From NCBI GenBank assembly GCA_045120395.1, contig JBGVET010000026.1:5691-69690 (forward strand): a stretch of DNA of 64,000 nucleotides, in the 5' to 3' direction. The notes beneath the pieces were generated by a model. That model saw only the letters and a program-made list of their open reading frames with translations, ran no database searches and was not told the DNA's origin. Source of the DNA: Candidatus Limimorpha sp. Lineage in GTDB: Bacteria; Bacteroidota; Bacteroidia; Bacteroidales; F082. Each line of letters starts with the position of its first letter. Position 1 is the stretch's first letter. A program made the translations under genes and the position numbers. Of this stretch, positions 837 to 25,068 are shown in pieces.

Positions 837-1811
837 ATGAAAAGACCGAATTACAAATTATATTTTAGATTAAAACATATAGAGTTTATCGGGATTGTAC
901 TATTATTGATTTTATCAATTGTGGGATTATTGTTTGTTTGGGATACCACATATCCTTTCTTTAAATATACGTCTTTATTTAACTATATTGTATGTTTCAT
1001 ATTCTTTATACTATCTTTAATTGGACTTGTTTTTGTCGCAAGAAAATTTAAGTTGGAAAATTTTCAACAAGCATCTAAAACAAGTAAATTGAAATCCAGT
1101 TTTGCTGTTTTATTCTATAGCTTAGTAGCAATTATATCTATTGAATATGTTTTTTATTTGAAGAATATTGATAAAGTTGCAATAGACAAGGATATTCTAG
1201 AGTATTATATACAAGATGATCTTGATAATATAAACAATCATATTAATATAAACGAACAGTATGAATCCATATATGCTAAAATTTCACAAAACATTTGCGA
1301 TACCATATCATATTTGTGTTATTATGAAAATGAGGCATATTTCCTAGTAATAAACAATGATACAATAAAAATAAGATTGCACAGAAAGGCTGGTTCAACA
1401 CCACCAATGCACAAAAAACAACAAAGTAAAGAACTTGATTTCTATGGAGTCAATGAATGCGGAATCTCATTAAAAAACGAAAGTTATAATTTATCTCATC
1501 CTGCAAGTCACAATTTGATAACTGATATCATAAGTTGTGATAGTGTCTCGGGTAAAAATATTAAGACATTAATAGAACAGAAGATTCAATATTATAAAAA
1601 TCGTAAAAAATCCTTATGCCAAATTTTAGAGAAAGATAGCCATGTTTCTTTTGGGGATTTTTTAATTATTTGTTTATTAGACCAAGGTATCATAGATAGT
1701 AAGGCAAATATAGTCATTAGGCTATTGTTAGTAATACAAGCAATTGTTATAACATTTGTATCTGGATATATGTACCAAATCATATATAAAATATTAGACG
1801 GTGAAGACTAA
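837..1811 (+). CDS. hypothetical membrane protein (324 aa)
   Basis: Three hydrophobic helices in first ~110 aa and one near the C-terminus; AT-rich; no known motif. Confidence 0.5.
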   Translation: MKRPNYKLYFRLKHIEFIGIVLLLILSIVGLLFVWDTTYPFFKYTSLFNYIVCFIFFILSLIGLVFVARKFKLENFQQASKTSKLKSSFAVLFYSLVAIISIEYVFYLKNIDKVAIDKDILEYYIQDDLDNINNHININEQYESIYAKISQNICDTISYLCYYENEAYFLVINNDTIKIRLHRKAGSTPPMHKKQQSKELDFYGVNECGISLKNESYNLSHPASHNLITDIISCDSVSGKNIKTLIEQKIQYYKNRKKSLCQILEKDSHVSFGDFLIICLLDQGIIDSKANIVIRLLLVIQAIVITFVSGYMYQIIYKILDGED

Positions 1812-2445: not shown

Positions 2446-2488
2446 GTCTTCGCTATAATTGAAAAATATTAAAAACATATTAGACATT

Positions 2489-3685
2489 ATGGCAACAATA
2501 AAAGTAAAACTACGTCCTTCATTGGTGAAAGGGCGTGCTGGAACGATATTTTATCAAATATCACATCGTAGAACTACACAGCAAATAACAACCAGCATAA
2601 AATTGCATCCTCATGAATGGGATCCAGTTAAAGAACGAATTATGATAGATGTGAATAATAGAGTTATCGTTCAGAATCGTATTGACTGTGATACAGCGCT
2701 ATTAAAACACATTGTTAAAGATTTTGAGCATAAAGAAACAAATTATTCCGCCTATGATATTGTTAGACTTTATAAATCTATGGAATGTAATATATCTGTA
2801 TTTGATTTTATGCATACTCAAATACAGTTAATGCGTGATAGCAATCGTTTAGGCACAGCTTTGAACTATGAGAAAACATTGAAAAACTTCACGGAATTTC
2901 TTGGAGGTGTCGATTTACCTATACCTGTAATAAACGAACAACTCATAGCTGAATATAACGCATTTCTCATTAAGCGTGGAATGGTAAGAAATTCCATTTC
3001 ATTCTATATGCGTATAATGCGAGCTGTATATAATAAAGCTGTAAGGCAAAAACTAGTTAATCAAACATATCCATTTGCAGATGTTTATACAGGTATTGAT
3101 AAAACTCGTAAAAGAGCTGTTTCAGAATCTGTAATATCGCAGTTATATAAACTCAATTTAACTGAAAACAGTTCACTTGCACTTGCAAGGGATATATTCA
3201 TTTTTAGTTATTGTACTCGTGGAATGGCTTTCGTAGACATTGCATATTTAAAAAAGGAAAATATCCAAAATGATGTAATTTGCTATACTCGTCGCAAAAC
3301 AGGACAACTTTTAAGTATAAGAATAGAATCAAGCATACGATTGATTATTGACAGATATTCATCCAACCTATCACCTTATGTGTTCCCTATATTGACTTCT
3401 TTGGATATAAAGCAATCATACGAAGAGTATGTAACAGCAATTAACAACTACAATCGTTTGTTAAAAATATTATCAAAGATGTTACCTGATAGTTGTAAAC
3501 TTACCTCATACACTTCAAGGCATAGTTGGGCAACTGCCGCAAGAAATCATAACGTGCCAATTTCTGTTATCAGCGCAGGCATGGGACATTCTACAGAACT
3601 AACCACTCGTATTTATTTAAGTACATTGGAAAACTCAGTAATAGACGATGCTAACAAAGGAATAATCAAGGAATTACTTAAATAG
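2489..3685 (+). CDS. tyrosine site-specific recombinase (integrase/invertase type, IntDOT-like with N-terminal arm-binding domain)
   Basis: ATG at 2489 preferred over TTG 2459; N-term IKVKLRPSLVKGRAGTIFYQISHRR; catalytic region TRGMAFVDIA ... SRHSWATAARNHNVPISVISAGMGHSTELTTRIYL (R..HxxR..H..Y). Confidence 0.9.
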   Translation: MATIKVKLRPSLVKGRAGTIFYQISHRRTTQQITTSIKLHPHEWDPVKERIMIDVNNRVIVQNRIDCDTALLKHIVKDFEHKETNYSAYDIVRLYKSMECNISVFDFMHTQIQLMRDSNRLGTALNYEKTLKNFTEFLGGVDLPIPVINEQLIAEYNAFLIKRGMVRNSISFYMRIMRAVYNKAVRQKLVNQTYPFADVYTGIDKTRKRAVSESVISQLYKLNLTENSSLALARDIFIFSYCTRGMAFVDIAYLKKENIQNDVICYTRRKTGQLLSIRIESSIRLIIDRYSSNLSPYVFPILTSLDIKQSYEEYVTAINNYNRLLKILSKMLPDSCKLTSYTSRHSWATAARNHNVPISVISAGMGHSTELTTRIYLSTLENSVIDDANKGIIKELLK

Positions 3686-3703
3686 TTCCAAGAAAGAACT
3701 ATA
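3682..3703. repeat. left inverted repeat ATAGTTCCAAGAAAGAACTATA (overlaps recombinase stop codon)
   Basis: Exact reverse complement of 3942-3963; internally 7-bp arms ATAGTTC/GAACTAT around 7-nt spacer CAAGAAA. Confidence 0.9.
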
Positions 3704-3941
3704 ACTGAATTGCAAATGTATAAAAATAATAAGTAGTAATAAAGAAATGTAAAATTTTTTTTCTACATAACGACATTCATATAAACCAAATACAAATAGA
3801 ACTATAAATTATAAAGTTACAATATAATTTTGAGAAGAAAAACATCCTTTTATTTATGGTTTAAATCCACTTGAAATAAGTTTTAAAAAAAATCTTGATT
3901 CGTTTTATATAATATTATAAATCATACAATTAAGCAATTGC
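3704..3941. promoter_or_regulatory. candidate invertible promoter segment (inverton)
   Basis: 238 bp AT-rich, bracketed by perfect 22-bp IRs next to a tyrosine recombinase; TAATTTTG (3825-3832, + strand) and TACATTTG (minus strand, 3713-3720) match Bacteroides -7 consensus TAnnTTTG. Confidence 0.55.
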
Positions 3942-3963
3942 TATAGTTCTTTCTTGGAACTAT
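3942..3963. repeat. right inverted repeat TATAGTTCTTTCTTGGAACTAT
   Basis: Exact reverse complement of 3682-3703; 37 nt upstream of operon ATG at 4000. Confidence 0.9.
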
Positions 3964-3999
3964 ATATAATGATTTTTGAAATTTATTTAAACAGATAAA

Positions 4000-4458
4000 A
4001 TGATTGATAGTTTTATAGATACAACAGTTAATATAGAATATGGATTACTTATATCCATTGTTTTAGATGCGATGATATTACTTGTCCTATCATACGTTAA
4101 TAAAGGAAACAAGCTAAATGTCCTATCATATTTTATAGCATTAGCATTACTTATACCTCTTACAATACAAATAAGCCGTTTGATGGGAGCTTATGATCTT
4201 CTTAATACCACATCTGCAATTAATAGTATTGTTGAAGGTATATCACCAGCATTGAGTCAATATATATCAGGTACAGATAGCCACGATATAGAATGGTTTA
4301 TATTTAGACGTATTTTATGGTCTGTAATATTTATAATAATAGCATCTGTATGCATATATGTAACTATGGATAAGAAAAAAATAAGAAATCGTGATATACC
4401 TAACGGAGCTAATATAGGCAGAAGATATAGTTCAAATGTATCAAGAAGACGCAGATAA
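4000..4458 (+). CDS. small integral membrane protein (152 aa), first gene of tubulin-like operon
   Basis: Three to four hydrophobic helices, basic tail RRYSSNVSRRRR; 19 nt before next gene. Confidence 0.6.
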   Translation: MIDSFIDTTVNIEYGLLISIVLDAMILLVLSYVNKGNKLNVLSYFIALALLIPLTIQISRLMGAYDLLNTTSAINSIVEGISPALSQYISGTDSHDIEWFIFRRILWSVIFIIIASVCIYVTMDKKKIRNRDIPNGANIGRRYSSNVSRRRR

Positions 4459-4477
4459 TCATTAAAAAATAAATATT

Positions 4478-7400
4478 ATGGCAACATTAAAAACAAATCA
4501 CATTTTAATAGGTCTTGGTGGCACTGGAGGAAAAATCCTTCGTGCTTTCAAAATGCGAATGTTTGAGGAATTTCCAAACAAGGAAGAACGCGAAAAACAG
4601 CCAATAGCACTTCTCTATGTGGATTCAACAAGAGAAATGATGGGTATTGGAAGAGCGGATATGGATGTAATGGGACAAGACGCTTCATTTGGGGAAAATG
4701 AGTTTTTATATATAAAAGGATGTGACGTGCCAGACCTTCTGGATAACATTGACAATCATCCTGAACTTAAAGGTATTGTCAACAATGTAGGTGCTGTTCG
4801 TACTGCCATTGGAAATCTTGGCGAAGCTGCTGGTCAGAAACGTCGTGCTGGACGTCTTCTTTTTGCAGTTAATGCTCGTAAATACGTTGATGCTTTAAAA
4901 AACTGTTTTTCAAAGTGTAATGAACGTTCTCATAATAATACCAAACAAGTACATATATTTGCAGGTCTATGCGGTGGAACAGGTTCTGGTTCAATTATAG
5001 ATGCTATTGTTCAAGCTAGAAATATATCAGGTTGGGAAAATGCGCAGATAAACGTTTATGCTATGATTCCAGAACAAGATCTTCCTAAGGCTGATATGGA
5101 TAAAGGCAGATATTATGAAAATGGTTATGCCGCACTTAATGAATTGAATGCACTTCAATGTGGACGTTATAATCCATGTGATGTATTGGCAAGTGGTTCT
5201 CCGTTAAATGTATTCAGCGAACGAATCAAAGGTGTTGCAAATGGTATTGCTTTATATAGCAATGTTAATTCAAACGGTAGAATCGTTGATTCATTTGTGG
5301 AATTACCAAAGATAGTAAGTGATTATGTTTATTCTCGCATATTTCTTATAAATCAAGAAGCATCTGAATGTCATGATATTATCAGAGCTTTTAACTTTGA
5401 AAATATGGATGGTGCTGAGTTTGAGTATGATGAATGTGTTATTGCCAATGAAACTATGGCATCACAAGAATTACCAATTGCAAGGACTAAGAAATTATAT
5501 TCATTTGGTCTTAAACGTGTAATTTATCCAGAAATGCGTGTGCTTAAGCACATGACATACACCATTGGTCAAAATGTGCTTTATCAATTTAGATATAACA
5601 ATTGGCGTCCTAATATTGGTTTCATTGACGAAGAAGTTAATATAGACTATCGAGCAGAATATCTTAAAAATGATGTTTTAAATCGTTGGATGCTTGACGA
5701 ATCTCATCTCACATTAGAAGAAGAAATACTTACAGCAAAAGATGGTAACAAACATGAATCGTTTTCAAGAGAATGGCAAAGCAGAGTCAATGACTTTGCC
5801 GATTTCTGCAGTGAATCTGAATGCCCTTTGACAGAAATAAGTCGCCAAATGGATGGAATGTTTGAAGAAAGTTTCCGTAACGAGGGTGTCCGTAATTACT
5901 ATAGTAATAAACTTCGTTCCCTAAATTCTTTTGCTAAAGAAGTACGTTCTAATATAGAGAAAGAATTGTTTAACAAGTGGAGAGATGGACACATTTCTAT
6001 CATGGAACTTAGCCGTATAGGTGAATTGCTTGCCAATTATGTGGCTACTGACATGAAAAAGAAATTAGATGAATCTTTCGAAAACGCCAAAATAAAACTC
6101 GAAGATTCAGACTGCTTGCTTTCACAAATTTTGGATGATTGGACGCATGTAGGATTTATCGGTAAATTTGTGATGAAAAAGAAAAGCGACTACTATGTTG
6201 AATACCAAAATGAATTAGTTAATAATTTAAGTATCAGAACACTTCTTGTTGCATTGGATTTTGCTCATCAATTATCTTCTGAACTACAACGTGAAATTGG
6301 TAAGATGAGTGATGATATTAATTCCTTCAGCAAAATGCTTAATGATACTATTGACGAGACTAATCGCTTAATTACCGCTCAACAAAAAGTCAACAAAGGA
6401 CTTGAAGATATGCGCGGTGCAGTGATTGAAGTTAGTGAAGAAGAGCGTATGATTAAGTACGAAGAGGAATTGCGTTATGATAAAGAAGGTATGGGTAATA
6501 TTTCACGTCAACTTCGTGAAGCTATTCTTCCTGAAACAGAATTTAAAAACTTTGGTGATTTACTAACCCGTATTAATGAAAAGACCATCAAACATGTATT
6601 TGATGTCAGACTATCTGATATTATTCAGGCAAAACACGCTGATTTACCACCGTCATCAACTAAAATACTAGGTTTAAATATTCTTACACAATTACAACAA
6701 AAGTTAGGAAATAATTACCAAAAGATACAGGAATTTGCTCATGAAATTCTCGAACAAAGTGGTGCATATATCAATTTGGATCGTAATCAAATTATATCAA
6801 ACATTCGTAATAACGACCAACCTGATGAGAATAAGAATATCAATCTTCGCGAAGTTCTCATAAGCATACCATCACCTGATGACAATCCTGGATTAAAAGA
6901 ATTTGCCGAAGATTTAAAAAGAGCGTTTGAAAGTCAAGTTGAAAATGGAGTGAAACCTCCAAAAATCTTTATGGAAAGTTCTCGTAAGAATGAATTATCT
7001 ATCATCACTATAAACTACGCATTCCCAATGCGAGCAATTAGTTGGTTGTCTGGTTATAGAAAACGTTATGATAAATATCTTAACACAGGAAATGCCAGTC
7101 AAGATCTAAGTCGTTCTATATTACTTCACAGTGAAGGATTGGGCGATAATCTTCCTGATATTTTTGCAAAAACAGACGCTGAATTACGCAAAATAGATGA
7201 AGAGAACGCAAAGAAACACCCAATGGCTACTGCACCTGTGGGAAATACTGCTTTTCAGGCTCCGATGACAAATATGCCTCCAATGCCTGGCGCAGCTGTT
7301 CCTCCTCCGATGCAACCTGCGGAACCACAAGTACAAATGTTCTTATACATAGGTGGACAACAATATGGTCCTTATGATTTTAAAACATTAAAACAATTTG

Positions 7401-7576
7401 TTGCGACACAACAGTTAACACCTCAAACAATGGTATGGATGCAAGGCATGGCAGCATGGACACCAGCTGGACAAGTACCGGAATTACAAACTTTATTTGC
7501 TCCTACACCACCATCTCCTGGTATGCCTCCGATGCCTCCTACACCTGGTTCGGTACTACCTCCTATGAATATGTAA
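4478..7576 (+). CDS. tubulin/FtsZ-like GTPase (Tubulin_2-type) with long helical region and C-terminal proline-rich/GYF_2-like domain
   Basis: GLGGTGGK near N-terminus; FAGLCGGTGSGSIID resembles tubulin/FtsZ signature GGGTGSG; C-terminus PPMPGAAVPPPMQP, then YIGGQQYGPYDFKTLKQFVATQQLTPQTMVWMQGMAAWTPAGQVPEL (GYF_2-like), then PPSPGMPPMPPTPG. Confidence 0.75.
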   Translation: MATLKTNHILIGLGGTGGKILRAFKMRMFEEFPNKEEREKQPIALLYVDSTREMMGIGRADMDVMGQDASFGENEFLYIKGCDVPDLLDNIDNHPELKGIVNNVGAVRTAIGNLGEAAGQKRRAGRLLFAVNARKYVDALKNCFSKCNERSHNNTKQVHIFAGLCGGTGSGSIIDAIVQARNISGWENAQINVYAMIPEQDLPKADMDKGRYYENGYAALNELNALQCGRYNPCDVLASGSPLNVFSERIKGVANGIALYSNVNSNGRIVDSFVELPKIVSDYVYSRIFLINQEASECHDIIRAFNFENMDGAEFEYDECVIANETMASQELPIARTKKLYSFGLKRVIYPEMRVLKHMTYTIGQNVLYQFRYNNWRPNIGFIDEEVNIDYRAEYLKNDVLNRWMLDESHLTLEEEILTAKDGNKHESFSREWQSRVNDFADFCSESECPLTEISRQMDGMFEESFRNEGVRNYYSNKLRSLNSFAKEVRSNIEKELFNKWRDGHISIMELSRIGELLANYVATDMKKKLDESFENAKIKLEDSDCLLSQILDDWTHVGFIGKFVMKKKSDYYVEYQNELVNNLSIRTLLVALDFAHQLSSELQREIGKMSDDINSFSKMLNDTIDETNRLITAQQKVNKGLEDMRGAVIEVSEEERMIKYEEELRYDKEGMGNISRQLREAILPETEFKNFGDLLTRINEKTIKHVFDVRLSDIIQAKHADLPPSSTKILGLNILTQLQQKLGNNYQKIQEFAHEILEQSGAYINLDRNQIISNIRNNDQPDENKNINLREVLISIPSPDDNPGLKEFAEDLKRAFESQVENGVKPPKIFMESSRKNELSIITINYAFPMRAISWLSGYRKRYDKYLNTGNASQDLSRSILLHSEGLGDNLPDIFAKTDAELRKIDEENAKKHPMATAPVGNTAFQAPMTNMPPMPGAAVPPPMQPAEPQVQMFLYIGGQQYGPYDFKTLKQFVATQQLTPQTMVWMQGMAAWTPAGQVPELQTLFAPTPPSPGMPPMPPTPGSVLPPMNM

Positions 7577-7611
7577 TACGAATAATGAAATAATTATATA
7601 AAATAAAAGAT

Positions 7612-8211
7612 ATGGATAATAGAAATTCAGGACGTATTAAAAAATACGGTGTTTGTTTAAATGACAAATGTTCACAATACAAAGTAGTTCAAGAAATAAT
7701 GCATGGTAATCTTGAATGCCCAGAATGCAAGAAGAAACTTTCTCCTTGCGCTCCTCCAAAGAAGAAAAACAACTCAAAACCTATAGTTGTTGCACTTATA
7801 TCCTTACTGTGTATTGGTGCTATCATAGGAGGCATATTTGTATTTTCAAAAAAGACAGTTACTAATACAGAGCAAACTATAATCGAAAAAAGTATTGTTG
7901 AGAAAGTAGAAACACCTGTTGAACCGGAAAAGATTACTTCAGATGATGGTGTTCTTAATCTAAGTTACGGAACATACACAGGTGCAACTAAAGACGGATA
8001 TCCTCATGGACAAGGTCGTTTGACATACACAAAATCACGTCAAATCAACCGAAATGACATTAAGAATCGTATCGCAAATGAAGGCGATTATGTGATTGGT
8101 GAATTTTTTAATGGATTTGTTGTCTATGGAAAACTTTATGATTCCAATGGCAATCTACTACGTTCACTTAATTTCGGCATTGGTTCAGAAAACAGTTATG
8201 ATTCTAAATAA
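7612..8211 (+). CDS. Zn-ribbon / single-TM / MORN-repeat protein
   Basis: CLNDKC...CPECKKK; TM IVVALISLLCIGAIIGGIFVF; MORN-like YTGATKDGYPHGQGRLTY and GDYVIGEFFNGFVVYGKLY. Confidence 0.6.
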   Translation: MDNRNSGRIKKYGVCLNDKCSQYKVVQEIMHGNLECPECKKKLSPCAPPKKKNNSKPIVVALISLLCIGAIIGGIFVFSKKTVTNTEQTIIEKSIVEKVETPVEPEKITSDDGVLNLSYGTYTGATKDGYPHGQGRLTYTKSRQINRNDIKNRIANEGDYVIGEFFNGFVVYGKLYDSNGNLLRSLNFGIGSENSYDSK

Positions 8212-8233
8212 TTTTTGAACAATCAATTGGTAT

Positions 8234-9217
8234 ATGAGCAAAACAACTTATCATAGAATTCTAATATTGACTTTCGGTTTGTTCTTTTTTTCAAACACAA
8301 GTCATGCTCAAAAATTTTCTCTTTTCTCCAAAGAGGTTAAGAAAGATTATCCATCAGCAGTGTATAATTTTCTTGAAACATACCTTTACAAAATAGATAG
8401 TTTAGAAAGAGCAAATGAAAATATTGATAGGATTCTTCGTGATGATAAGGTGATATTTTTAGAAGGCTCCGCATCCTTGGCTCGTAATATTACACCAGAA
8501 ACATTGTGCAAAATAAAGACAATCGAAAACAAGTATTATGAAGTTTCTTGGCTTGACAATACAAATGAAACAATTTTATCTTTGGCTTTCCCAATGCAAT
8601 ATGAGTTATTGCTTGGCAGACCTAAAGTTGAATTAGAAAAAGAGTTGAAGTTTGTATTGTCGGTTTGTCAAGATTACATTCCTAAAAACGTGTCAAATAT
8701 CGATTTGTTCAATCAGGAAAATGGTGGTATTATGACCACATCAAGCTCAAACTACTATCTGGAAAATTTGAATACAACATCCTATTATATCATGTCGGAA
8801 ACAGGAGATACCATTCCTATTTTTTCTGATAAAGACAATTGGATGTCTGCTGTAAATTTATTCCAAGGATGTATTGATGATATATCCGAATACAAGTTGT
8901 ACATAGAACAAAATATGTATGGTTTTAAAAGTATTCAGTATACCATAACTTTACAACAATGGTTAGCATATTGTCAAAAGATGATGTTGACAACATATTT
9001 TGCTATAGAGGAAGAAAGAGAAGATGGATTTAAAGCCTTGCTTATTGCTGAAAGTCATGAATTAGGGTTTAATCATATGCTGTCATTGATAATTCCTTCA
9101 AACTTTGTTTCTAACAAACGTTCTGTTTTTAAGGCAACAATGAATGCATATATACCAACTCATAATGTAAAAGATTTGTATCAAGTATATGTTAAAAAAA
9201 CAAAGAAACAAATATGA
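8234..9217 (+). CDS. secreted hypothetical protein (signal peptide)
   Basis: N-terminal ILILTFGLFFFSNTSHAQ; operon context; no known motif. Confidence 0.55.
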   Translation: MSKTTYHRILILTFGLFFFSNTSHAQKFSLFSKEVKKDYPSAVYNFLETYLYKIDSLERANENIDRILRDDKVIFLEGSASLARNITPETLCKIKTIENKYYEVSWLDNTNETILSLAFPMQYELLLGRPKVELEKELKFVLSVCQDYIPKNVSNIDLFNQENGGIMTTSSSNYYLENLNTTSYYIMSETGDTIPIFSDKDNWMSAVNLFQGCIDDISEYKLYIEQNMYGFKSIQYTITLQQWLAYCQKMMLTTYFAIEEEREDGFKALLIAESHELGFNHMLSLIIPSNFVSNKRSVFKATMNAYIPTHNVKDLYQVYVKKTKKQI

Positions 9218-9918
9218 TGAGAAAATATATCATTATACTCACGATTTCTCTGATTATAGGGAATGTACACGCACAAAGTGAACAAGATAGAATAAATGAG
9301 ATAAAAAGCGACATTGGATATCTATATGCTACAGGGACGTCTATGAACAATGCAGATGAAGCTGCAAAAAACGCACAAGATTTACTTGCCGTAGAAATAG
9401 AGCAATGGTTAAAAGTAAATGTATCTGGTGATATTGCAGGTTACATAGCAAAGTCTCAGGGTAACTACTCTACAATACAAACAAGGCGTGGCAAGTTGTA
9501 TCGTGCGTTTGCATTTGTAAGCAAGATGGATATATTGCCATACTACCAAAAAGAAGATTTGATGCATGTTGAGTTTACAAATTCAGAAGAACAGCAAACA
9601 GAAAATAGCATAATTGAAGAAATATTATATTATCCAACTTCTGAAGAGCAACAAATGATGAACGTCAAAACTTTTACAGAGCTTAATGAATACATTAACC
9701 GAGGTAGAGAAGATAAAAGCATTATCGATGTCGGAAATTATGCAAATCTGCCACAAAATGGTGTTGTATATGTTTTTATTCATAACAGACAAGGTGAAGT
9801 GCCAGCTTGTATGAAAGTGACAGATGGCTTCGCTATCAATATTGCTACTGGCAAAGAGGATAATATATCAAAATATAAAGGATGCGGGGCGATATGGATT
9901 AAACAAAACAACAAATAA
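9214..9918 (+). CDS. secreted hypothetical protein (possibly LPP20-like)
   Basis: ATGA overlap with upstream gene; signal peptide IIILTISLIIGNVHAQ. Confidence 0.5.
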   Translation: MMRKYIIILTISLIIGNVHAQSEQDRINEIKSDIGYLYATGTSMNNADEAAKNAQDLLAVEIEQWLKVNVSGDIAGYIAKSQGNYSTIQTRRGKLYRAFAFVSKMDILPYYQKEDLMHVEFTNSEEQQTENSIIEEILYYPTSEEQQMMNVKTFTELNEYINRGREDKSIIDVGNYANLPQNGVVYVFIHNRQGEVPACMKVTDGFAINIATGKEDNISKYKGCGAIWIKQNNK

Positions 9919-9927
9919 AAGAAGTAT

Positions 9928-10914
9928 ATGAAAAAGATATTTTTAACATTAGTGTTATTGTCATTACTTTATAATGTCAATGCTACTGGAAAAGTTACAG
10001 TTCGTATTTCTGATGGTATTGAGAATACAACTGTCAAATCAAAAATGGAACAAGTTATTTCTAAAATTTTGACGGAAGCTAATGCTGCTCATAAAGAAAA
10101 AAGAGAATTAAATTATTCTATATTGGGAATACCTTCATCAGTACAAAGCTCTTTGGCTTCTCTTTGGGATAATTCTCCATTTATAAGTATGGATAATGAA
10201 ATTGTCGAACGCTGCATCACAACAGCTAATGGTTATCAGATAAGAAATATTCCTCTCATATTAAAACCGTTAAATTCTACAGATATAGAAGATGATGAAG
10301 ATTACCAAGAAGCTGTAGTCAGTTTTGATAAACAAGGAAACCTTACTTCATTTTATTTGTCTATCAGCATGAATCTATACATGAATGTAATCAGAGACAA
10401 TAAGGAAATAACAGATCTCCGTCGTCGTCAATTGATACTTGATTATGTAGAACAATTCAGAACTGCTTACAATCAGAAAGACCTTGATTTTTTAGAGGCG
10501 GTGTATAGTGACGATGCTCTTATTATAACAGGAAAGGTAATTAAAAGAAAACCTGTTGATGGTATAGTCATGCCAGATAAAATAGAGTATTCTCAGCAAA
10601 ATAAGAAGACATATCTAAACAATCTTGCTAAAATTTTCAATAGCAACAAACAGATTAGAGTACAATTTGATGAAGTTGAGGTAATGAGGCACGGTGTGTC
10701 TCCTGATATATATGGGGTTACATTGCATCAATCATGGACAACAGATACATATCATGATGATGGATATCTTTTCTTATTATGGGATTTCCGAGATGAAACA
10801 CACCCACAAATACACGTCAGAACTTGGCAACCAGATGCATATAACTCTGATGGCACTGGAACAAAACGTATCCCTAAAGATGAAATATTCAGTTTGAGCG
10901 ATTTTGATATATAG
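9928..10914 (+). CDS. secreted protein with C-terminal NTF2/SnoaL-like (DUF4440-like) region
   Basis: Signal peptide LTLVLLSLLYNVNATG; LDYVEQFRTAYNQKDLDFLEAVYSDDALIITG resembles NTF2-like fold starts. Confidence 0.5.
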   Translation: MKKIFLTLVLLSLLYNVNATGKVTVRISDGIENTTVKSKMEQVISKILTEANAAHKEKRELNYSILGIPSSVQSSLASLWDNSPFISMDNEIVERCITTANGYQIRNIPLILKPLNSTDIEDDEDYQEAVVSFDKQGNLTSFYLSISMNLYMNVIRDNKEITDLRRRQLILDYVEQFRTAYNQKDLDFLEAVYSDDALIITGKVIKRKPVDGIVMPDKIEYSQQNKKTYLNNLAKIFNSNKQIRVQFDEVEVMRHGVSPDIYGVTLHQSWTTDTYHDDGYLFLLWDFRDETHPQIHVRTWQPDAYNSDGTGTKRIPKDEIFSLSDFDI

Positions 10915-10960
10915 TATATCAACCATAACGAATTGTAAAATTACCTAAAATTGATATGAT

Positions 10961-11200
10961 ATGTGTAAAAAACAGATGAATGAGTTAAAAGAATTATTTA
11001 ATGCCTCCATACCTTCACCTGAAGAAACATCTACTGAAAAGATATTATTATCTAACGGTAGAATTTCTCTTCTCAAGAAAACAGATGGAACATTCTGTTT
11101 GAAAAATGAAATCGTGGGGTGTCAATATGGACATTTTTTAACAAAAAAAGAAGCAGAAGAATATTGGGAGGATATTGTTATTGATGACAACACCTTGTAA
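10961..11200 (+). CDS. small hypothetical cytoplasmic protein (79 aa)
   Basis: ORF in operon register, no signal peptide; weak support. Confidence 0.35.
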   Translation: MCKKQMNELKELFNASIPSPEETSTEKILLSNGRISLLKKTDGTFCLKNEIVGCQYGHFLTKKEAEEYWEDIVIDDNTL

Positions 11201-11252
11201 AAAGCTAAATTGTACAAAATTTGAAAAAATCAATTAAATAGGAGAAATAATA

Positions 11253-13355
11253 ATGAAGAGACTTTTTTTGTTATTGCTGTTTGTAAATAGTCTTGCTTAT
11301 GCTCAAAATTATAGTATAAGTAGCGTTATTGAACTTCAAAATGATTTGGCGGCCAGAAGAAATGTAGTGACTGACTCGTCGGGGATAGGTTGCGCTTTGA
11401 TTAGGGTAAACATTCCTTCTGTTAATAATATCAAATTTGATTCGTCAATAGTTGGCGAAGTAGAGTTTTTGCCAGGTGAATATAATGTTTATTTACCAGA
11501 ATATTCAAATTTATTATCAGTTTCAGTAGATGGAGAATGGTATGATATAGATTTTTCAAAATTCAATATTACGATTGAAGAGAAAAAATGCTATCGCATT
11601 ATTTTTAGGAAGAATATAAATACTAATGTACCTGTGGTTTCAAAAACTTCAATTAATGCAAATTATGACAACGTGGTGGTATTGATTGATGGTGTGCCTG
11701 TGGGACAAACTCCATTACAACTGGATAACATATCACTAGGAGAACATATTTTATCTGTCCCGAATACAAATGGAGTGACCATGCGTGATACAACTATTGT
11801 TTTCACAGAAAACAATATAATAAACTTGTTTCTGCACAAAGAGGATAAAAAAACAGTTATTGTTGACATGGCCACGCCAGGTGGGGATTCATGTGGATGG
11901 TATAATGTTTTTGGTACAAATATTAAAGAAGAAAATGGAAAAGTAGGTGTTGTTGAGTATACAGGAGATACAATTGTTCCCTTCGAATTTGATTATATAT
12001 ATCCAGGTATTCTGAATGGATATTATCTCGTGAATAAAGATGATAAATGGGGATTATACGATATGGATAAAGGCTTAGTTGTTCAGTGTGTATATGATAA
12101 TATAAGTGCATGGAAATCGTATGCTCATGATCAATATATGCCTGTTGCCCAGGATGATAAGTGGGGAGTTATTTCTCCAGAAGGGGAATTGATTATCCCT
12201 ATAAAATATGAAAATCATCCCCAACTATATGAAGATGTCATAAAAGTGGAATATATAGAACAAGAAAGTAAGAAAGAATTTTATGGAGTTTATTCATATG
12301 ATGGAGAAGAAATTATAAAACCTAAATACGAATATATGAATGAATTTGTTAATGGCTATGCTTTCTTTAGAAAGTATGATGACACAGTAGGTTTTGTTGA
12401 TATTTATGGAAATGAAACATATTTTCCAGAAGGTTATAGTGTTGGGAGTAGTTGGGGAATAGGTGGAACCATATTTAGGAGTAATCTCTTTAGAGTAAAA
12501 GATAAGGTATCAGGTAAATGGGGATACATGAACTCTCAACTTGAATTGGTTATTCCTTGTATTTATGATGCAATAAGTGAATACGACGCTGCACCTAATT
12601 TCAATAATGGAATAGTGCTATTAAAACTAAATGAAGATAAATTGGTATTGGACTCAAATGGTAACATTATTGTAAGTTGTAAAAATCATGGATACAGTGA
12701 TATTGAGATAGTTAGTCGTTCAAATTCCATATGGAATCATGGTCGTTTCTTTGAGTATCACGATTACTACGACATAGATAATAATACTCTTATTAAAGTT
12801 GTAAATTTAGATGCCAAATGTGGCCTTATAGATACAGATGGAAACATCATTGTTCCGTGCAAATATGAAGAAGATGACATACGATGGTTTTGTGATAATT
12901 ACACAAATTATTTTACTTTGTTAAATAACGATGAAGTAATTATATGTGACAAACATCAGAATGAGTTATTACGATTGCCTTCAAATCTTAGAATTCTTGA
13001 AATAACAGATGGATTCATTATGATTAAAGATGAAGAATCTGGATCTTATGGCTATCTTAATACAAAAGGTGAAATTTTAGCAAATTGTATTTATGGTAAT
13101 AGTTATAATGAACAACAGCTTGAAGGTGACAATGATGATAATGATGGGTATGACATGGCTAATGTTATAAATGAACAACCTATAACAGAAGGATTAGCAA
13201 TCTTAAATATAGGAGATAGATTTGGTTTTATTGATAATAATGGAAATGTTAAAGTGCCGCTTATTTATACTGCCGTAACACCATTTGAGAATGGTATGGC
13301 ATATGTTAGACAACAAAATGGAGAATGGAAAAAAATTTATAAAGACGAATTATGA
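11253..13355 (+). CDS. secreted PEGA-domain / WG (KWG) beta-repeat protein (700 aa)
   Basis: Signal peptide LLLFVNSLAYAQ; PEGA-like VVVLIDGVPVGQTPLQLDNISLGEHILSV; repeats DDKWGLYD, DDKWGVISPEGELIIP, SGKWGYMNSQLELVIP, KCGLIDTDGNIIVP, RFGFIDNNGNVKVP. Confidence 0.65.
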   Translation: MKRLFLLLLFVNSLAYAQNYSISSVIELQNDLAARRNVVTDSSGIGCALIRVNIPSVNNIKFDSSIVGEVEFLPGEYNVYLPEYSNLLSVSVDGEWYDIDFSKFNITIEEKKCYRIIFRKNINTNVPVVSKTSINANYDNVVVLIDGVPVGQTPLQLDNISLGEHILSVPNTNGVTMRDTTIVFTENNIINLFLHKEDKKTVIVDMATPGGDSCGWYNVFGTNIKEENGKVGVVEYTGDTIVPFEFDYIYPGILNGYYLVNKDDKWGLYDMDKGLVVQCVYDNISAWKSYAHDQYMPVAQDDKWGVISPEGELIIPIKYENHPQLYEDVIKVEYIEQESKKEFYGVYSYDGEEIIKPKYEYMNEFVNGYAFFRKYDDTVGFVDIYGNETYFPEGYSVGSSWGIGGTIFRSNLFRVKDKVSGKWGYMNSQLELVIPCIYDAISEYDAAPNFNNGIVLLKLNEDKLVLDSNGNIIVSCKNHGYSDIEIVSRSNSIWNHGRFFEYHDYYDIDNNTLIKVVNLDAKCGLIDTDGNIIVPCKYEEDDIRWFCDNYTNYFTLLNNDEVIICDKHQNELLRLPSNLRILEITDGFIMIKDEESGSYGYLNTKGEILANCIYGNSYNEQQLEGDNDDNDGYDMANVINEQPITEGLAILNIGDRFGFIDNNGNVKVPLIYTAVTPFENGMAYVRQQNGEWKKIYKDEL

Positions 13356-13996
13356 TCAGGTGTTTTTTTATCATTATAGCTACATTTATTAGTTTAAATT
13401 CGTTTGCGCAGAATTTAACTATAAATAGTTGCAAATATTGCAAGACGGATTCAACATATATTGTTTTACAGAGATATGACATAAATGATAATCCTTGTGC
13501 CATTATTAAAGTCTTCCCAAAAGATATTAAGGGAAAACTTGAATTTAAGGGTAATATTATAGGCGAAGTTATAAATAATGATGATCATTATGTTATTTAT
13601 GTCTTAAATAAGACTAAACGAATTAGTGTTTTCCATACAGATTATACTCCAGAAGTTATTGATTTTACAAAATATGATGATACTTCAATGGGTGTTGAAC
13701 AAAATAAAGTATATTATGTTCAGATAGCGGGAGATACTAAAAACACGTCGTCCTCAGATATGGTATACCCATCAGGATCTAGAGTACTATCATTTTCTTC
13801 AGATAATGAACTTAAGCAATTAGTTGTAAATGACATCGATTGGCAAATTGTTGATAATAGTGCAAAAAAGCTATTGCCATATGGGAAATATAAATATGAA
13901 GCAATCGATACTGAAGGACGATGTTTGAAGGGTGAAGTAGAGTTACTCCCTGCAATAGGGAGTAAGATTGTCAAATTAAATTTTGGTAATAATTAG
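13352..13996 (+). CDS. secreted hypothetical protein (214 aa)
   Basis: ATGA overlap with upstream gene; signal peptide FFIIIATFISLNSFAQ. Confidence 0.5.
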   Translation: MIRCFFIIIATFISLNSFAQNLTINSCKYCKTDSTYIVLQRYDINDNPCAIIKVFPKDIKGKLEFKGNIIGEVINNDDHYVIYVLNKTKRISVFHTDYTPEVIDFTKYDDTSMGVEQNKVYYVQIAGDTKNTSSSDMVYPSGSRVLSFSSDNELKQLVVNDIDWQIVDNSAKKLLPYGKYKYEAIDTEGRCLKGEVELLPAIGSKIVKLNFGNN

Positions 13997-14512
13997 ATGG
14001 AAAAATATAATCTTGAGGAATATGTGGTTAAAGCTTCTCCTAAAGTTAATCAATTATTGAGGGGTAATATTGATGCATCTGAATATACCTTTGACTCATT
14101 ATTTGAAAAAGGTATAGTATCCCAACCTCTTTATCGATTGATTAACAATGAGCATATTCACATTCAAGATGGAATCTTTGCTGATAAAGGATATTTGTCT
14201 TGTACAAGTGATTTTGATTCATTTATCCATCATGTAGATGGTGTAAATGTTGCATGTCTGCAATTTAATATACCCGATAGTTTTCAGAGAATAGATGTAC
14301 ACGCTTTATTGCCTGACCACACTGATGAAGGTGAAATAGTCCTTCCGAGAGGCCTTCAATTTAGGGTTGAAAGCGTACAAGAGTATGCGACTCCTAGTGA
14401 TATTCAAAATTTCTTGGATAATATAGGAAGTATCTCATCTGCTAAAGAAATTTGTGGTATATATGGAATAAAAACGATAACCTACTATAGATTATCACTA
14501 ATTCTGCATTAG
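13997..14512 (+). CDS. ADP-ribosyltransferase-like protein (C3/VIP2-type R-S-ExE pattern)
   Basis: VNQLLRG; PLYRLI (Arg); GYLSCTSD (STS-like); DEGEIVLPRGLQFRV (ExE + following LPRG); no signal peptide; ATG abuts upstream TAG. Confidence 0.65.
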   Translation: MEKYNLEEYVVKASPKVNQLLRGNIDASEYTFDSLFEKGIVSQPLYRLINNEHIHIQDGIFADKGYLSCTSDFDSFIHHVDGVNVACLQFNIPDSFQRIDVHALLPDHTDEGEIVLPRGLQFRVESVQEYATPSDIQNFLDNIGSISSAKEICGIYGIKTITYYRLSLILH

Positions 14513-14576
14513 AATATGCATTTATAGAGTTAATATATATCGTTAAGAACAACTATAAACCAAGCAACAGAAACAT

Positions 14577-15494
14577 ATGAATCCATTTGACGCAAACGAA
14601 AGACATAGATATATTATAGAATCTGGCGGCATCCCTGCATCTTCTAGAGAGGAGCAGGAGAAGGAAATGTGGGTTAACTCTATTAATGTTGATCTAGATA
14701 TTCCTATATATCGTTATATGAAATGGGAATATCTACAAAAGTTTTATTCCTCTACACGGCATGAATGGATATTAGCACATCCGTGTTTATGGCAAGATAA
14801 GTTTGAGCATTTTATATTTAAATGCGAGAAGGTCCATAGTTCGAAAATGAATATCGATATTGAAATATCAAATCTTGCAGATCATTATTATGCCCAATGT
14901 TGGACTATTGTTGAAGAATCTTCATTGCAATGGCAGGTTAATAAGCCCCATACTAATAGTTGTCACGATAATGTAGGGGATGATGAAAATGGAGAAATTT
15001 GGGTAAAAGTACGAACTACGCCGAGAAAACTATTAGGAGCAATGTTTTATTCTTCAGACAATCTTGTGGAAAATTCCTACAATATGATAACATACTTTAT
15101 CGGTAAAGTAGAATATCTTGCTAGTGAAGATATTGAAAACTTTAAGATAACAGATTCTAATCAGTTAATGGACCAAACAGGTTTACTGCAGGTTTTATTT
15201 CTTTTGCAAAAAAGAATGCCATATATACAAGAGCAAGAAGTTCGACTAATTATGCAAGTTGATAGTAATTTTTGCAACAAACATCCAGAAAATATAGTTG
15301 GAAGAAGTATTGACAATTGGTATGATTTGATTGATGAAATTGTTCTTGATCCATGGGTTACCCAAAGTCAGGAGGAGACAGTTAAGTCGTATTTGTTACA
15401 ATTAGCCCAGCAACAAAACCGAACACCTATTAATTGTTGGAAGTCTCATTTAAATGATCATCCCCAATATTTGGTACCTATCCTGGATATTTAA
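14577..15494 (+). CDS. DUF2971-like hypothetical protein
   Basis: IYRYMKWEYLQKFYSS...LAHPCLWQDKFEHF resembles DUF2971 N-terminal pattern (YRY..., ..D.FE); last + strand gene before terminator. Confidence 0.4.
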   Translation: MNPFDANERHRYIIESGGIPASSREEQEKEMWVNSINVDLDIPIYRYMKWEYLQKFYSSTRHEWILAHPCLWQDKFEHFIFKCEKVHSSKMNIDIEISNLADHYYAQCWTIVEESSLQWQVNKPHTNSCHDNVGDDENGEIWVKVRTTPRKLLGAMFYSSDNLVENSYNMITYFIGKVEYLASEDIENFKITDSNQLMDQTGLLQVLFLLQKRMPYIQEQEVRLIMQVDSNFCNKHPENIVGRSIDNWYDLIDEIVLDPWVTQSQEETVKSYLLQLAQQQNRTPINCWKSHLNDHPQYLVPILDI

Positions 15495-15501: not shown

Positions 15502-15539
15502 AAAATCCTCAGCAATCATACGACTACTGAGGATTTTTT
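15502..15539. terminator. bidirectional terminator between the operon and the Argonaute gene
   Basis: AAAATCCTCAG (15502-15512) / CTGAGGATTTT (15527-15537) perfect 11-bp arms with A-run and T-run on either side. Confidence 0.7.
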
Positions 15540-15543: not shown

Positions 15544-17742
15544 CTACAAAAACCATAAATGGTTAGTATCAATATCGTAATTATTTACATCGTTGAAGTA
15601 TGGTAGCATCTGGGCTATCATCTCTGGGTATTTGATTGTTACTGGTAGGTTTTGTTGTTTGACTGATTTCCAATAGATACGACTGAATTGATATACTTGG
15701 TCGATGAGCTGATTGATTGTTGTGGTGTCAATGTCGAGCATAGGGTCGTTGGGACAGTCTATCTTTATTTTTATCGGGAATGGGTATCCGTCGTATGGGT
15801 TTAACCTTGCATTTTCGTAGCGTGTGTTGTTGCATAAAAGATATGTCTTGTCGCCTAAATTAACGTATGTTCCGCTGTATGGCATTAGTTCTTTGTAATT
15901 GTCATCAAATACCACATAGTCTTCTGATTCTGTCTTGTTTATTGACAATACATAAAATGGTATATCAAGATTGAGGTTGTGCAGTGCTTTTTCGATGTGC
16001 GCTATTTCTTTGTGGTTCATAGTTTTGTAATAGTGTATGATTAGTCGTTGTGGTTTGCCGTTTGCAACTGCAAATTTAAGGATGGCATTTTCTATGGAAC
16101 CTGCCAGTTCTTCTAATTCATCATTTAAAAAGTAGGCAAAGGAGTTGAAAGAACCTGTGTTGTCGAATGAGAATGCGGAACCTATATATTGTGTGTTTGT
16201 CTCTGTATTGCGAAATGCTCCTACACCTACTATGAGTTCGTCCTGTTTAGGTGACGATAGTCGCCAAGGTGTTCCGCCGAGTTTGGCATTGATGGCTATA
16301 GACATGTTTTGAAGAGTGTAGGCAAAGTTTTTCAGAGGTTTGCCGTTGCTGTCAGTATTTGTATTGTCGTGTTCAATCATGCTGAGCATTTTGGATGTTT
16401 CAATGCATTGCGAGACGATATTGTATCTGAGCAGTCTTTCTTTTACTCTGTAATATATCTTACGTTCTTCCTTGTCGGATGTGTGTCTGCCTATCGGCGT
16501 CAGGTATATGGCGATTATCTTTTCATTATGATTAAAAGTCATATTTCTAAGGAAGTCGTTCAGTTCTCCCAAGATATTGTTTGTGTCTTGTATTTCAAGA
16601 AATTTATTTGAGAAAGAAAAATCTCTACCTATGTATAGTTTTAGTCCTTTGAACAGTTGTTTATAGTCATTTTTGAAATATCTGAGGAGGTTTCTTGCTG
16701 CTTCTCTGTCTTCTTTCGGGAATATCGCCAACATTGTAATAGATGGATATGGCGTTGGCTGAAACGGACCGTGGTTAACTCCGATTTGTGGATTATAGTT
16801 TGTTGTATTGCCTCCAAACATCAGCGATCTGCTTGCTGAATTGGTGTGACCTATCTGCAAAGGATTAAGTTTAGCAAATCCATCTTCGATATTTATCAGC
16901 TTACGGAATTCATCGTTGTTGATAGTCTTATAAAAAGCAGAAATTTTGTCAAAGTATCTTTTGTATTTGTTTCTTGGATATGTCTTTTTGTAAGATAATG
17001 GTTCTTCGATTTCGTCTTCATCGGCAAATTCTATTTGCAGATAGTTTATCAGTTCACGATTCATTATAGGATATGCGGCGTTTGAATCGAAGTTTTCTGT
17101 AAGAGATATTGAACTGTATTTATCTACAATGAATTTTGTGAATTTGTCTTTTCTTCTGTAAACGACTTTTCCGAAGAGTTCGGCTGATGGCTGTATCGGT
17201 GAAAATGGGTCGTCGGATGACTGCATAATCTTTGCCACCGAATATTTATACACCCATGTCGGACGGTCGTATGTGATGACGAGCTGCGGTGTGTTGTTAA
17301 ATCTATCGTAGTTGACTTTTAGAGTAAAACGGTCATATTTGATACATTCAGGATAAGGATTATCTCTACCATCTCTGAACCAAATCTGATTGTCTTTTGT
17401 TATTTTATTGGTTTCTATCAGAAAGTTCTTACTTACAAAATATTGGTAAATAAGTCTGTTGTAGTATCGTTTTGCGAATGCAAAATTTCTCGGGTCACGC
17501 AGGTCTATCTTGACAGGTGTGAATCCGTTAGTTTCGACTTCAAATGTTGAATAAATCTTGTCTCCATTTTTAAAATCAGGGAATGCTTCTTCCAATTCTA
17601 TGGGTTTGTTGTGATGCGTCAAGAATGGGAAGTTTATTCTATCAGTTGTGTGCAAGAAATAGAATGTTTGCGGTTCTTCAGGAAATTGAAAGCGAATGGC
17701 GTTCAAGAAGAGAGATTCTTGTGATGATTGATTGTTGTTCAT
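15544..17742 (-). CDS. prokaryotic Argonaute, long form, predicted catalytically inactive (long-B-like)
   Basis: PIWI-entry motif NMSIAINAKLGGTPWRL; MID-like YYRVKERLLRYNIVSQCIETSK; DEDX positions substituted (LIVGVGAF where GxDV expected, LIIHYYKT where RDG expected); 732 aa. Confidence 0.8.
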   Translation of the reverse strand: MNNNQSSQESLFLNAIRFQFPEEPQTFYFLHTTDRINFPFLTHHNKPIELEEAFPDFKNGDKIYSTFEVETNGFTPVKIDLRDPRNFAFAKRYYNRLIYQYFVSKNFLIETNKITKDNQIWFRDGRDNPYPECIKYDRFTLKVNYDRFNNTPQLVITYDRPTWVYKYSVAKIMQSSDDPFSPIQPSAELFGKVVYRRKDKFTKFIVDKYSSISLTENFDSNAAYPIMNRELINYLQIEFADEDEIEEPLSYKKTYPRNKYKRYFDKISAFYKTINNDEFRKLINIEDGFAKLNPLQIGHTNSASRSLMFGGNTTNYNPQIGVNHGPFQPTPYPSITMLAIFPKEDREAARNLLRYFKNDYKQLFKGLKLYIGRDFSFSNKFLEIQDTNNILGELNDFLRNMTFNHNEKIIAIYLTPIGRHTSDKEERKIYYRVKERLLRYNIVSQCIETSKMLSMIEHDNTNTDSNGKPLKNFAYTLQNMSIAINAKLGGTPWRLSSPKQDELIVGVGAFRNTETNTQYIGSAFSFDNTGSFNSFAYFLNDELEELAGSIENAILKFAVANGKPQRLIIHYYKTMNHKEIAHIEKALHNLNLDIPFYVLSINKTESEDYVVFDDNYKELMPYSGTYVNLGDKTYLLCNNTRYENARLNPYDGYPFPIKIKIDCPNDPMLDIDTTTINQLIDQVYQFSRIYWKSVKQQNLPVTIKYPEMIAQMLPYFNDVNNYDIDTNHLWFL

Positions 17743-24059: not shown

Positions 24060-24064
24060 TATGT

Positions 24065-25066: not shown

Positions 25067-25068
25067 AT

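Follow-up and report, generated by a model that had tools for sequence, protein, structure and literature searches.

The 64,000-nucleotide stretch of Candidatus Limimorpha sp. analyzed here (contig JBGVET010000026.1; "the window" hereafter, always meaning the whole stretch) harbors a cluster of eleven genes, g1-g11, around a gene for a tubulin/FtsZ-like GTPase (g2). Our comparison of 80 further loci demonstrates that the conserved unit consists of g1-g6, not of eleven genes. An initial annotation of the same DNA had taken all eleven genes as one operon and one system. This view is not supported by our data, because synteny in 80 genomes shows a g1-g6 core followed by a swappable exported tail. 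Judged by its sequence, the locus is a composite of an invertible DNA switch (inverton), the g1-g6 module, an exchangeable tail and add-ons seen in this lineage only. The reading we prefer, if with some hesitation, is a phase-variable, envelope-spanning apparatus of the FtsZl1 type that anchors polymorphic periplasmic proteins.

The conserved six-gene module

The synteny sample comprised 80 loci, obtained by a scan with the g2 GTPase domain at one genome per GTDB species and analyzed by tblastn and all-against-all clustering of open reading frames (ORFs). All 80 are from gut or rumen Bacteroidales (Prevotella, Paraprevotella, Bacteroides, Phocaeicola, Paludibacteraceae, Muribaculaceae and Alloprevotella), among them the cultured Xylanibacter brevis ATCC 19188 and Caecibacteroides pullorum AN421; non-Bacteroidales bin labels on a few contigs look like binning errors. 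The core genes in the window, with their occurrence in the sample, are:

4000-4458, plus strand: g1, small membrane protein with three hydrophobic, transmembrane (TM) segments and a basic C-terminal tail; core, 64/80 loci, in each immediately 5' of the GTPase gene
4478-7576, plus strand: g2, FtsZl1/Tubulin_2 GTPase (Pfam, T1/T4 motifs, structure model, synteny); core, 80/80 loci
7612-8211, plus strand: g3, protein with a zinc ribbon, a C-P-P-P-K motif, one TM segment and a periplasmic MORN-like domain; core, 72/80 loci
8234-9217, plus strand: g4, signal-peptide protein, fold class unassigned; core, 71/80 loci
9214-9918, plus strand: g5, signal-peptide protein, no Pfam or PDB match; core, 62/80 loci
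9928-10914, plus strand: g6, signal-peptide protein with an NTF2-like C-terminal domain; core, 69/80 loci

The order g1-g2-g3-g4-g5-g6 is fixed across the sample, and counts below 80 stem largely from contig ends. Genes g7, g10 and g11 are found in none of the 80 loci. Conservation of the neighborhood around g2, which the initial annotation had proposed as a check of its eleven-gene unit, is therefore seen for g1-g6 and not for g7, g10 and g11. Homologues are numerous: clustering at 90% identity leaves thousands of clusters for both g2 (more than 2,500) and g6 (more than 5,000). The genes flanking the module in other genomes vary by genus and are mostly housekeeping genes. Among 143 flanking proteins no Pfam family occurs in more than two, and PADLOC matches are few and unspecific, too few to call enrichment or depletion.

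Profile, motif and model evidence identifies g2 as a cytoplasmic GTPase of the FtsZl1 (Tubulin_2) branch with intact GTP-binding loops; the initial annotation had proposed a tubulin/FtsZ-like GTPase. The protein matches the Pfam families Tubulin_2 (3.8e-43) and GYF_2 (1.7e-18); against PF13809 it scores 148.5 bits at a cut-off of 27, with amino acids 9-368 covering profile positions 1-355 of 356. The tubulin signature of the glycine-rich GTP-binding loops is GGGTGSG; in g2 the T1 motif GLGGTGGK (amino acids 12-19) and the T4 motif GGTGSG (amino acids 166-171) are invariant among 33 homologues. In the AlphaFold2 (AF2) model, which has a mean predicted local distance difference test score (pLDDT) of 71.7, the N-terminal domain adopts a tubulin-type fold. 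Its best PDB matches by Foldseek are beta-tubulin, FtsZ and CetZ, whose nucleotide-binding domains align with it over about 240 columns (prob 1.0, E = 6e-3 to 3e-2). The GTPase domain is followed by a helical stalk of about 330 residues modelled with confidence, an alpha/beta region, proline-rich linkers and a GYF domain that resembles the one of GltJ (PDB 7z3c, E = 1.9e-5). Residues 198-340 are modelled with low confidence and lie outside the Foldseek matches, yet they are strongly conserved. Matches of the model to the alpha-pore-forming toxins AhlB, MakA and XaxA (root-mean-square deviation about 40 A, prob about 0.5) were rejected as long-helix artefacts.

That this GTPase is encoded together with membrane and exported proteins is borne out by g1, g3-g6 and the tail. 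In 27 homologues of g3 four cysteines are invariant, and an (almost) invariant CPP motif directly precedes the TM segment. The zinc-ribbon and TM parts of the earlier description of g3 are thereby sustained, while its MORN domain remains weak: the match (2e-4) lies just under the Pfam cut-off, and a C-terminal repeat of the form YxGxxKNGxPHGxG is conserved in the homologues.

The three exported core proteins are more difficult to classify. The AF2 model of g4 is good (pLDDT 85.5, predicted template modelling score 0.79); a fold search of the PDB gave no neighbor better than E = 0.04, with one subdomain weakly NTF2/cystatin-like. The most conserved exported component is g6, with 36-76% identity across loci. 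An NTF2-like domain had been assigned to it, for which we find weak matches only, to Cds6_C (2.9e-4, under the cut-off), DUF4440 and SnoaL_3, and homologues carry the name NTF2 family protein in one source. Profile hidden Markov models of g4, g5 and g6, built from 42-44 homologues each, retrieved nothing from PDB sequences.

Two Paludibacteraceae loci contain a tandem duplication of g6 (L024, 15510-17391; L026, 15532-17413), and in L001 a truncated additional copy of g6 is found among the tail genes (10044-10616).

The inversion switch and the exchangeable tail

Directly upstream of g1 the window contains the following elements:

2459-3685, plus strand: tyrosine recombinase, presumed invertase (Arm-DNA-bind_5, Phage_int_SAM_5, Phage_integrase)
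3679-3703, no strand: left inverted-repeat arm, 25 nt, 96% complementary to 3942-3966
3704-3941, no strand: invertible segment of 238 bp, presumed promoter carrier, both orientations in public assemblies
3942-3966, no strand: right inverted-repeat arm, 25 nt

Both orientations of the segment are found in public assemblies with collinear flanks, which is direct evidence for DNA inversion in natural populations and makes the element a true inverton. All close relatives, defined as contigs with a g2 at least 99% identical to that of the window, have the recombinase followed by g1-g6. In the public assemblies the segment is oriented as in the window in L081, L085, L086, L088 and L089 and is flipped in L082 and L087, with flanks of 96-100% identity. 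In L083 and L084 the assembly broke at the switch: either contig has as its first base exactly that of the right arm. The stop codon of the recombinase gene lies within the left arm, and the recombinase is kept directly upstream in L082 and L085-L089. The 17-nt core of the repeats occurs in the window at just these two sites.

The initial annotation had suggested an invertible promoter; the inversion is confirmed, and the promoter within the segment is presumed. Each strand of the segment has a single TAnnTTTG box (3825-3832, plus; 3713-3720, minus), neither with a -33 TTTG. This box is unenriched in the window (74 found, 73 expected), the sigma-70 promoter scan is uninformative for Bacteroidales, and the ON orientation is not decidable from the promoter motifs of the segment.

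Invertible promoters of Bacteroidales mostly control surface structures. The switch described here resembles them in that inverted repeats flank a short segment between a tyrosine recombinase gene and an operon rich in exported proteins, and in that both orientations coexist in nature. It differs in the operon itself, which is centered on a cytoplasmic tubulin-like GTPase instead of being a capsule, fimbrial, SusC/D or lipoprotein locus.

Candidate inverted repeats of 17-24 nt, 158-237 nt apart, are also located just 5' of the g1 homologue in at least four other loci (L064, 7040-7249; L017, 9028-9223; L031, 3487-3686; L074, 8415-8685). Their sequences are unrelated to those in the window, and the pair in L031 adjoins a tyrosine recombinase gene. 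This suggests that phase variation may have been recruited recurrently before the module, with the four loci as candidate invertons.

Downstream of g6 the window carries three genes of an exchangeable tail:

10961-11200, plus strand: g7, 79-aa protein without signal peptide, lineage-specific
11253-13355, plus strand: g8, exported protein with signal peptide, shared N-terminal domain, PEGA and seven WG repeats
13352-13996, plus strand: g9, exported protein with signal peptide, shared N-terminal domain and beta-rich C-terminus

The earlier description of g8 as an exported PEGA and WG-repeat protein is correct (WG_beta_rep 3e-42 in 7 stretches; PEGA 1e-4). Its N-terminal domain of about 110 aa is common to g9 and to the Sel1 tail proteins, and partial homologues of g8 occur in 18 loci. 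The g9 family (45 copies in 31 of the 80 loci) combines a signal peptide, the N-terminal domain of about 110 aa and PEGA repeats with a variable C-terminus, which may consist of FGE-sulfatase, Sel1, WG repeats or a region resembling an outer-membrane beta-barrel (the barrel matches are weak in some tail proteins of other loci). FGE-sulfatase and Sel1 sit on tail proteins of related loci.

Two kinds of tail follow g6 in the sample, either X8 plus X7, or one to three members of the g9 family with or without X7. X8 (30 loci) is a protein of about 520 aa with a signal peptide and a helical region, and X7 (39 loci) one of about 250 aa with a signal peptide and a glycine-zipper segment. Among contigs with a g2 at least 99% identical, the cassette is swapped as a whole: some hold g7-g8-g9, others two Sel1 proteins with the shared N-terminal domain. 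The small g7 moves with g8-g9 in these contigs and is lost where the Sel1 proteins replace the cassette. Enzyme genes at the 3' end also differ, with an ADP-ribosyltransferase (ART)-like gene in the window, a trypsin-like peptidase gene in L007, a metallophosphatase gene in L019 and, in addition, a weak DUF4384 match.

In three loci of the Prevotella group a cytoplasmic protein of about 190 aa is conserved 3' of the tail genes (L036, 19251-19814; L037, 13905-14510; L048, 20262-20822). Read by eye, it contains a D...(V/L)xLExKK pattern reminiscent of PD-(D/E)xK nucleases; the L036 copy, the one scanned, gave no Pfam match.

Passenger genes and the mobile-element setting

The 3' end of the cluster and the adjacent gene are organized as follows:

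13997-14512, plus strand: g10, cytoplasmic R-S-ExE ART-like protein (ADPrib_exo_Tox), lineage-specific add-on
14577-15494, plus strand: g11, single-gene defence candidate PDC-S31 (PADLOC profile), outside the module
15544-17742, minus strand: long prokaryotic Argonaute (pAgo), 732 aa, convergent with the cluster (Piwi 9.5e-17; PADLOC pAgo 1.5e-211)

The initial annotation was right in calling g10 ART-like and in noting an Argonaute neighbor. The 171-aa g10 protein lacks a signal peptide and matches ADPrib_exo_Tox at 1.5e-6 (28.1 bits, above the cut-off of 23.4), with only the C-terminal part of the Pfam model covered. R47, S68-x-T70-S71 and E111-x-E113 are invariant in four ART variants; the motifs read S68-C-T-S71 and E111-G-E113 in g10, and E-R-E in the variants. 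Since these residues are kept, g10 is probably an active enzyme. Like the R-S-ExE toxins of the C2/C3 type it possesses the arginine, the S-x-T-S and the E-x-E and passes the Pfam threshold; unlike them it is short and has no signal peptide, and its family, made up of stand-alone cytoplasmic proteins, is very small. This family forms 66 clusters at 50% identity among 1.84 billion representative proteins, most members being stand-alone proteins of about 170 aa, and metagenome scans yielded no other genomic contexts of the ART.

The protein encoded by g11 had been described as DUF2971-like. No Pfam family, DUF2971 included, matches it at E<=0.1; it matches PDC-S31 of PADLOC instead (1.5e-39, 133.8 bits, profile positions 7-226 of 245), a candidate for whose function we found no validation in the literature. 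By sequence, neither g10 nor g11 has a relative in the PDB (phmmer).

Every sibling contig long enough to show it has an ART gene after the tail. Two types of this gene occur, 72% identical, and the type tracks the downstream block and not the tail. Block A consists of ART-A, g11 and the 732-aa pAgo gene. Block B consists of ART-B, an unrelated 185-aa gene in place of g11 (L087, L088) and a 683-aa pAgo gene whose product is 30% identical to the 732-aa pAgo. This pattern marks g10, as far as sequence comparison reaches, as a lineage-specific and recent passenger of the module.

In L088 the ART gene (19555-20064) is a mosaic, with the first 22 or so codons of the window type and the remainder of the second type; a recombination breakpoint is evident inside this gene. 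In L083 the g11 homologue (10669-10980) has an in-frame internal deletion that joins amino acids 1-73 to 273-305, with the central 200 codons lost and 103 aa left. The rest of the contig is nearly identical, and the deletion indicates decay of the PDC-S31 gene.

Could all eleven genes nevertheless act as one abortive-infection system, with g10 as dedicated effector and g11 as a further component? In its favor, g10 directly adjoins g9 and lacks an obvious separate promoter, its R-S-ExE residues are intact and conserved, and the ART stays at the operon end with either the g7-g9 or the Sel1 tail. Set against this, g10 and g11 are in 0/80 module genomes, and the ART forms 66 clusters compared with thousands for g2 and g6. 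Moreover, g11, which matches a single-gene defence candidate, is replaced or internally deleted in siblings. The ART varies in type together with the downstream gene and the pAgo, and one ART copy is recombinant. We regard this scenario as highly improbable. With g10 in 0/80 loci, the second hypothesis of the initial annotation, in which the ART is the effector of the system, cannot describe the module in general; g7 and g11 are absent from 80/80 loci as well.

Alternatively, g10 and the gene after it may form an independent toxin/immunity or defence pair that inserted between module and Argonaute gene and is read through from the module promoter. Co-variation of ART type, next gene and pAgo type as a block, and the mostly stand-alone occurrence of the ART family, would fit such a pair. 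The two partner genes (g11 and the 185-aa gene) are unrelated to each other, though, the loss within g11 in L083 with an intact ART is unexpected for an essential antitoxin, and no other ART genomic contexts were retrieved. This alternative appears improbable too, if not to the same degree.

The surroundings of the cluster contain:

837-1811, plus strand: gene for a 324-aa protein upstream of the recombinase
15502-15539, no strand: bidirectional intrinsic terminator, 11-bp stem between an A-run and a T-run
18069-20598, plus strand: three overlapping genes for an HTH protein, a protein with a weak AbiEii match (E = 0.01) and a metallophosphoesterase
20658-26891: integrative-element backbone (PriCT_2/DUF3987 primase, BT4734-like protein, three excisionase-like HTH_17 proteins, tyrosine integrase)
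25069-26343, minus strand: second tyrosine integrase

By gene content, an integrative element carries the cluster, the Argonaute gene and their neighbors as cargo in this lineage, because the primase, excisionase-like proteins and integrase lie at 20.6-26.9 kb and chromosomal genes begin at 27.2 kb (from 27222: class II aminoacyl-tRNA synthetase, DNA polymerase III delta'). GC content climbs from about 0.30-0.35 to about 0.40-0.45 at the transition from element to chromosome. The defence-island setting claimed earlier holds for this lineage only, in the form of the element; in other genomes housekeeping genes flank the module. Support for the AbiE-like module is weak, consisting of the AbiEii match above, and the genes at 18069-20598 have no PADLOC match. 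Sibling elements carry a clear DUF6088 and AbiEii pair at another position. The 324-aa protein upstream of the recombinase is kept there in siblings, preceded by a PIN_12 protein.

Re-derivation of the ORFs places the eleven plus-strand genes at 4000-15494, as previously annotated, and the layout of the cluster was likewise reproduced. There are two 4-nt overlaps (9214/9217 and 13352/13355), one direct abutment (13996/13997) and gaps of 9-64 nt at the remaining junctions, the largest between g10 and g11. The cluster is indeed AT-rich, with a GC content of 0.30-0.38 over 4-15 kb compared with about 0.40-0.45 in most of 20-48 kb. The bidirectional terminator separates g11 from the convergent Argonaute gene; overlooked by a simple terminator scan, it folds at -16 kcal/mol (z = -5.9).

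Known systems and the role of the module

Tubulin_2 equals FtsZl1, a family noted computationally by Makarova and Koonin 2010 (PMC2875224). Within the tubulin/FtsZ superfamily it is the branch that has diverged most. Operons of FtsZl1 were reported with von Willebrand factor A (vWA), OmpA-like, Ser/Thr kinase and divergent P-loop GTPase partners, and membrane remodelling was predicted (PMC2875224). The sole true Bacteroidales member listed in 2010 was B. caccae BACCAC_02057, a 913-aa protein with other neighbors. The module shares with these operons the g2 family, a C-terminal helical/coiled-coil extension, the lack of a recognizable FtsZ/tubulin C-terminal domain and an encoding beside membrane and exported proteins. 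It differs in that the cluster has no vWA, OmpA-like, Ser/Thr kinase or P-loop GTPase gene, in its Bacteroidales-specific partners (g1, g3-g6, X7, X8, g9 family), and in the GYF domain and promoter inversion, neither of which was described in 2010. In the eleven proteins neither a Walker A motif (motif check) nor vWA, OmpA, Pkinase or a GTPase family (Pfam, E<=0.1) was found.

The second precedent is the set of GTPase-centric conflict systems of the GAP1-N2 type with tubulin components predicted by Kaur, Burroughs, Iyer and Aravind 2020 (PMC7159879), in which tubulin plus coiled coil is combined with zinc-ribbon (ZnR), PEGA, NTF2, GYF and FGS domains in membrane-proximal conflict systems. Likewise, the loci studied here combine tubulin and coiled coil with zinc ribbons, TM anchors, a GYF association and extracytoplasmic PEGA, NTF2, Sel1 and FGS, and their components are membrane-proximal and variable. 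By contrast, DO-GTPase, GAP1, vWA and FNIII were not found in the cluster (for GAP1, which has no model in the libraries used, this means the lack of any match). The predicted systems were reported from Firmicutes, Actinobacteria, Planctomycetes and others, not Bacteroidales, and the zinc ribbon here is on the small TM/MORN protein g3 and not on the GTPase.

A third point of comparison is GltJ of the Agl-Glt gliding machinery of Myxococcus xanthus. Its combination of zinc ribbon, GYF, TM segment and periplasmic domain, by which a nucleotide switch in the cytoplasm is connected with a complex spanning the envelope, recurs in the module. Here, however, zinc ribbon and TM segment (g3) and GYF domain (g2) are on separate proteins, and there are no other Glt/Agl components. 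The GltJ match of g2, restricted to the GYF domain and far under the cut-off (28.5 bits compared with 450), was the only result of an NCBIfam scan of the cluster. PADLOC profiles gave zero matches for g1-g10, and PHROGs nothing for ten of the proteins (all eleven except g8). A type V pilus, a set of type IX secretion cargo and a Bat aerotolerance operon were each considered and dropped, as lipoprotein cysteines, Por_Secre_tail, vWA and MoxR are absent from the cluster.

In the literature we found no experimental description of this Bacteroidales operon and no test of, or experimentally assigned function for, any FtsZl1 protein; the closest precedents are computational and have other defining partners. 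The earlier statement that no described system matches thus stands, in contrast to the eleven-gene unit and the idea of an ART effector. The locus is new as an operon type, and its FtsZl1 kind was already known computationally.

Among the readings of the module, the phase-variable envelope apparatus, the first hypothesis of the initial annotation, fits the evidence best, and we hold it tentatively, short of real confidence. Under this reading the tyrosine recombinase and the 238-bp segment would switch transcription of the cluster on and off. The GYF domain of g2 may dock on the C-P-P-P-K motif of g3, as its conservation suggests, and so provide a tether to the inner membrane in which the three-TM protein g1 would also take part. 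The MORN-like domain of g3 and the exported g4-g6 with their NTF2-like elements could form a periplasmic scaffold. Tail proteins would plug into this scaffold via their shared N-terminal domain and contact peptidoglycan or the outer membrane. GTP-dependent assembly of g2 might then organize or remodel an envelope structure, and phase variation together with tail swapping would diversify the cell envelope within a population. The genes g10 and g11 are, on this reading, two recent passengers added only in this mobile-element lineage and not components of the module.

Several points weigh against the envelope apparatus. Polymerization of g2 is only putative, because its tubulin-like match is restricted to the nucleotide-binding domain and no T7/C-terminal domain was recognized in the AF2 model or by Foldseek; T6-H7 could not be identified in FtsZl1 either (PMC2875224). 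The GYF-CPPPK contact is plausible, and the docking role of the tail N-terminal domain is proposed; both are deduced from conservation only. That the genes form a single operon, and the functions of its components, are predictions only. Finally, a conflict system would be just as compatible with the polymorphic tail, the patchy distribution, the variable 3' enzymes and the setting beside an Argonaute gene on a mobile element.

Such a system would be an envelope-anchored immune machinery of g1-g6, in which polymorphic periplasmic proteins sense an invader or envelope damage and signal via the zinc-ribbon/TM protein to the GTPase, whose nucleotide-dependent assembly would serve as a threshold switch releasing 3' effectors (here the ART). 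Tubulin-containing, membrane-proximal conflict systems of this kind were predicted by Kaur et al. 2020 (PMC7159879). The swapping of tail cassettes between near-identical strains and the variable 3' add-ons (ART, trypsin-like peptidase, metallophosphatase, weak DUF4384) point in the same direction. So do a Paraburkholderia FtsZl1 homologue in another kind of neighborhood, one that contains an effector, beside caspase, DUF4384, Gly-zipper and TPR proteins, the position of the cluster as integrative-element cargo near pAgo and PDC-S31 in this lineage, and a distribution that looks patchy, with B. caccae the sole true Bacteroidales in the 2010 FtsZl1 list. On the other hand, most of the 80 loci have no recognizable effector, housekeeping genes predominate in the flanks, where no defence neighbor recurs, the defining DO-GTPase, GAP1 and vWA were not found, g1-g10 are without a PADLOC match, and the ART co-varies with the downstream block and not with the module. 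On balance we consider a conflict system rather unlikely, though the strongest competitor of the envelope apparatus. The two are not exclusive, as a phase-varied envelope structure could alter phage susceptibility.

A more elaborate variant is less probable again. It would be an envelope-spanning surveillance or immune machine in which polymorphic periplasmic PEGA receptors with WG, Sel1 or FGE-sulfatase domains signal through the zinc-ribbon/TM adaptor to the GTPase, whose assembly would license cytoplasmic effectors such as the ART, the whole system being phase-varied since it would be costly. If true, a function would be assigned to the FtsZl1 branch of the tubulin superfamily for the first time.

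Our results define an FtsZl1 operon type that is compact, highly conserved and abundant among the Bacteroidales of gut and rumen. The natural ON/OFF DNA switch before the module in this lineage offers a direct genetic handle on the role of a tubulin-like GTPase at the Gram-negative gut envelope and on polymerization without a canonical C-terminal domain. With the eye-catching toxin-like gene being, in all appearance, a recent passenger, attention shifts to the conserved core.

A plasmid search with g2 retrieved one distant homologue only, on replicon NZ_CP155075.1 of Paraburkholderia sp. PREW-6R (L094, 6695-14426). This Tubulin_2 protein of 1005 aa shares 26% identity with g2 across 84% of its length, and the neighboring genes encode a YMGG Gly-zipper protein, a caspase (Peptidase_C14), a DUF4384 protein and a TPR protein.

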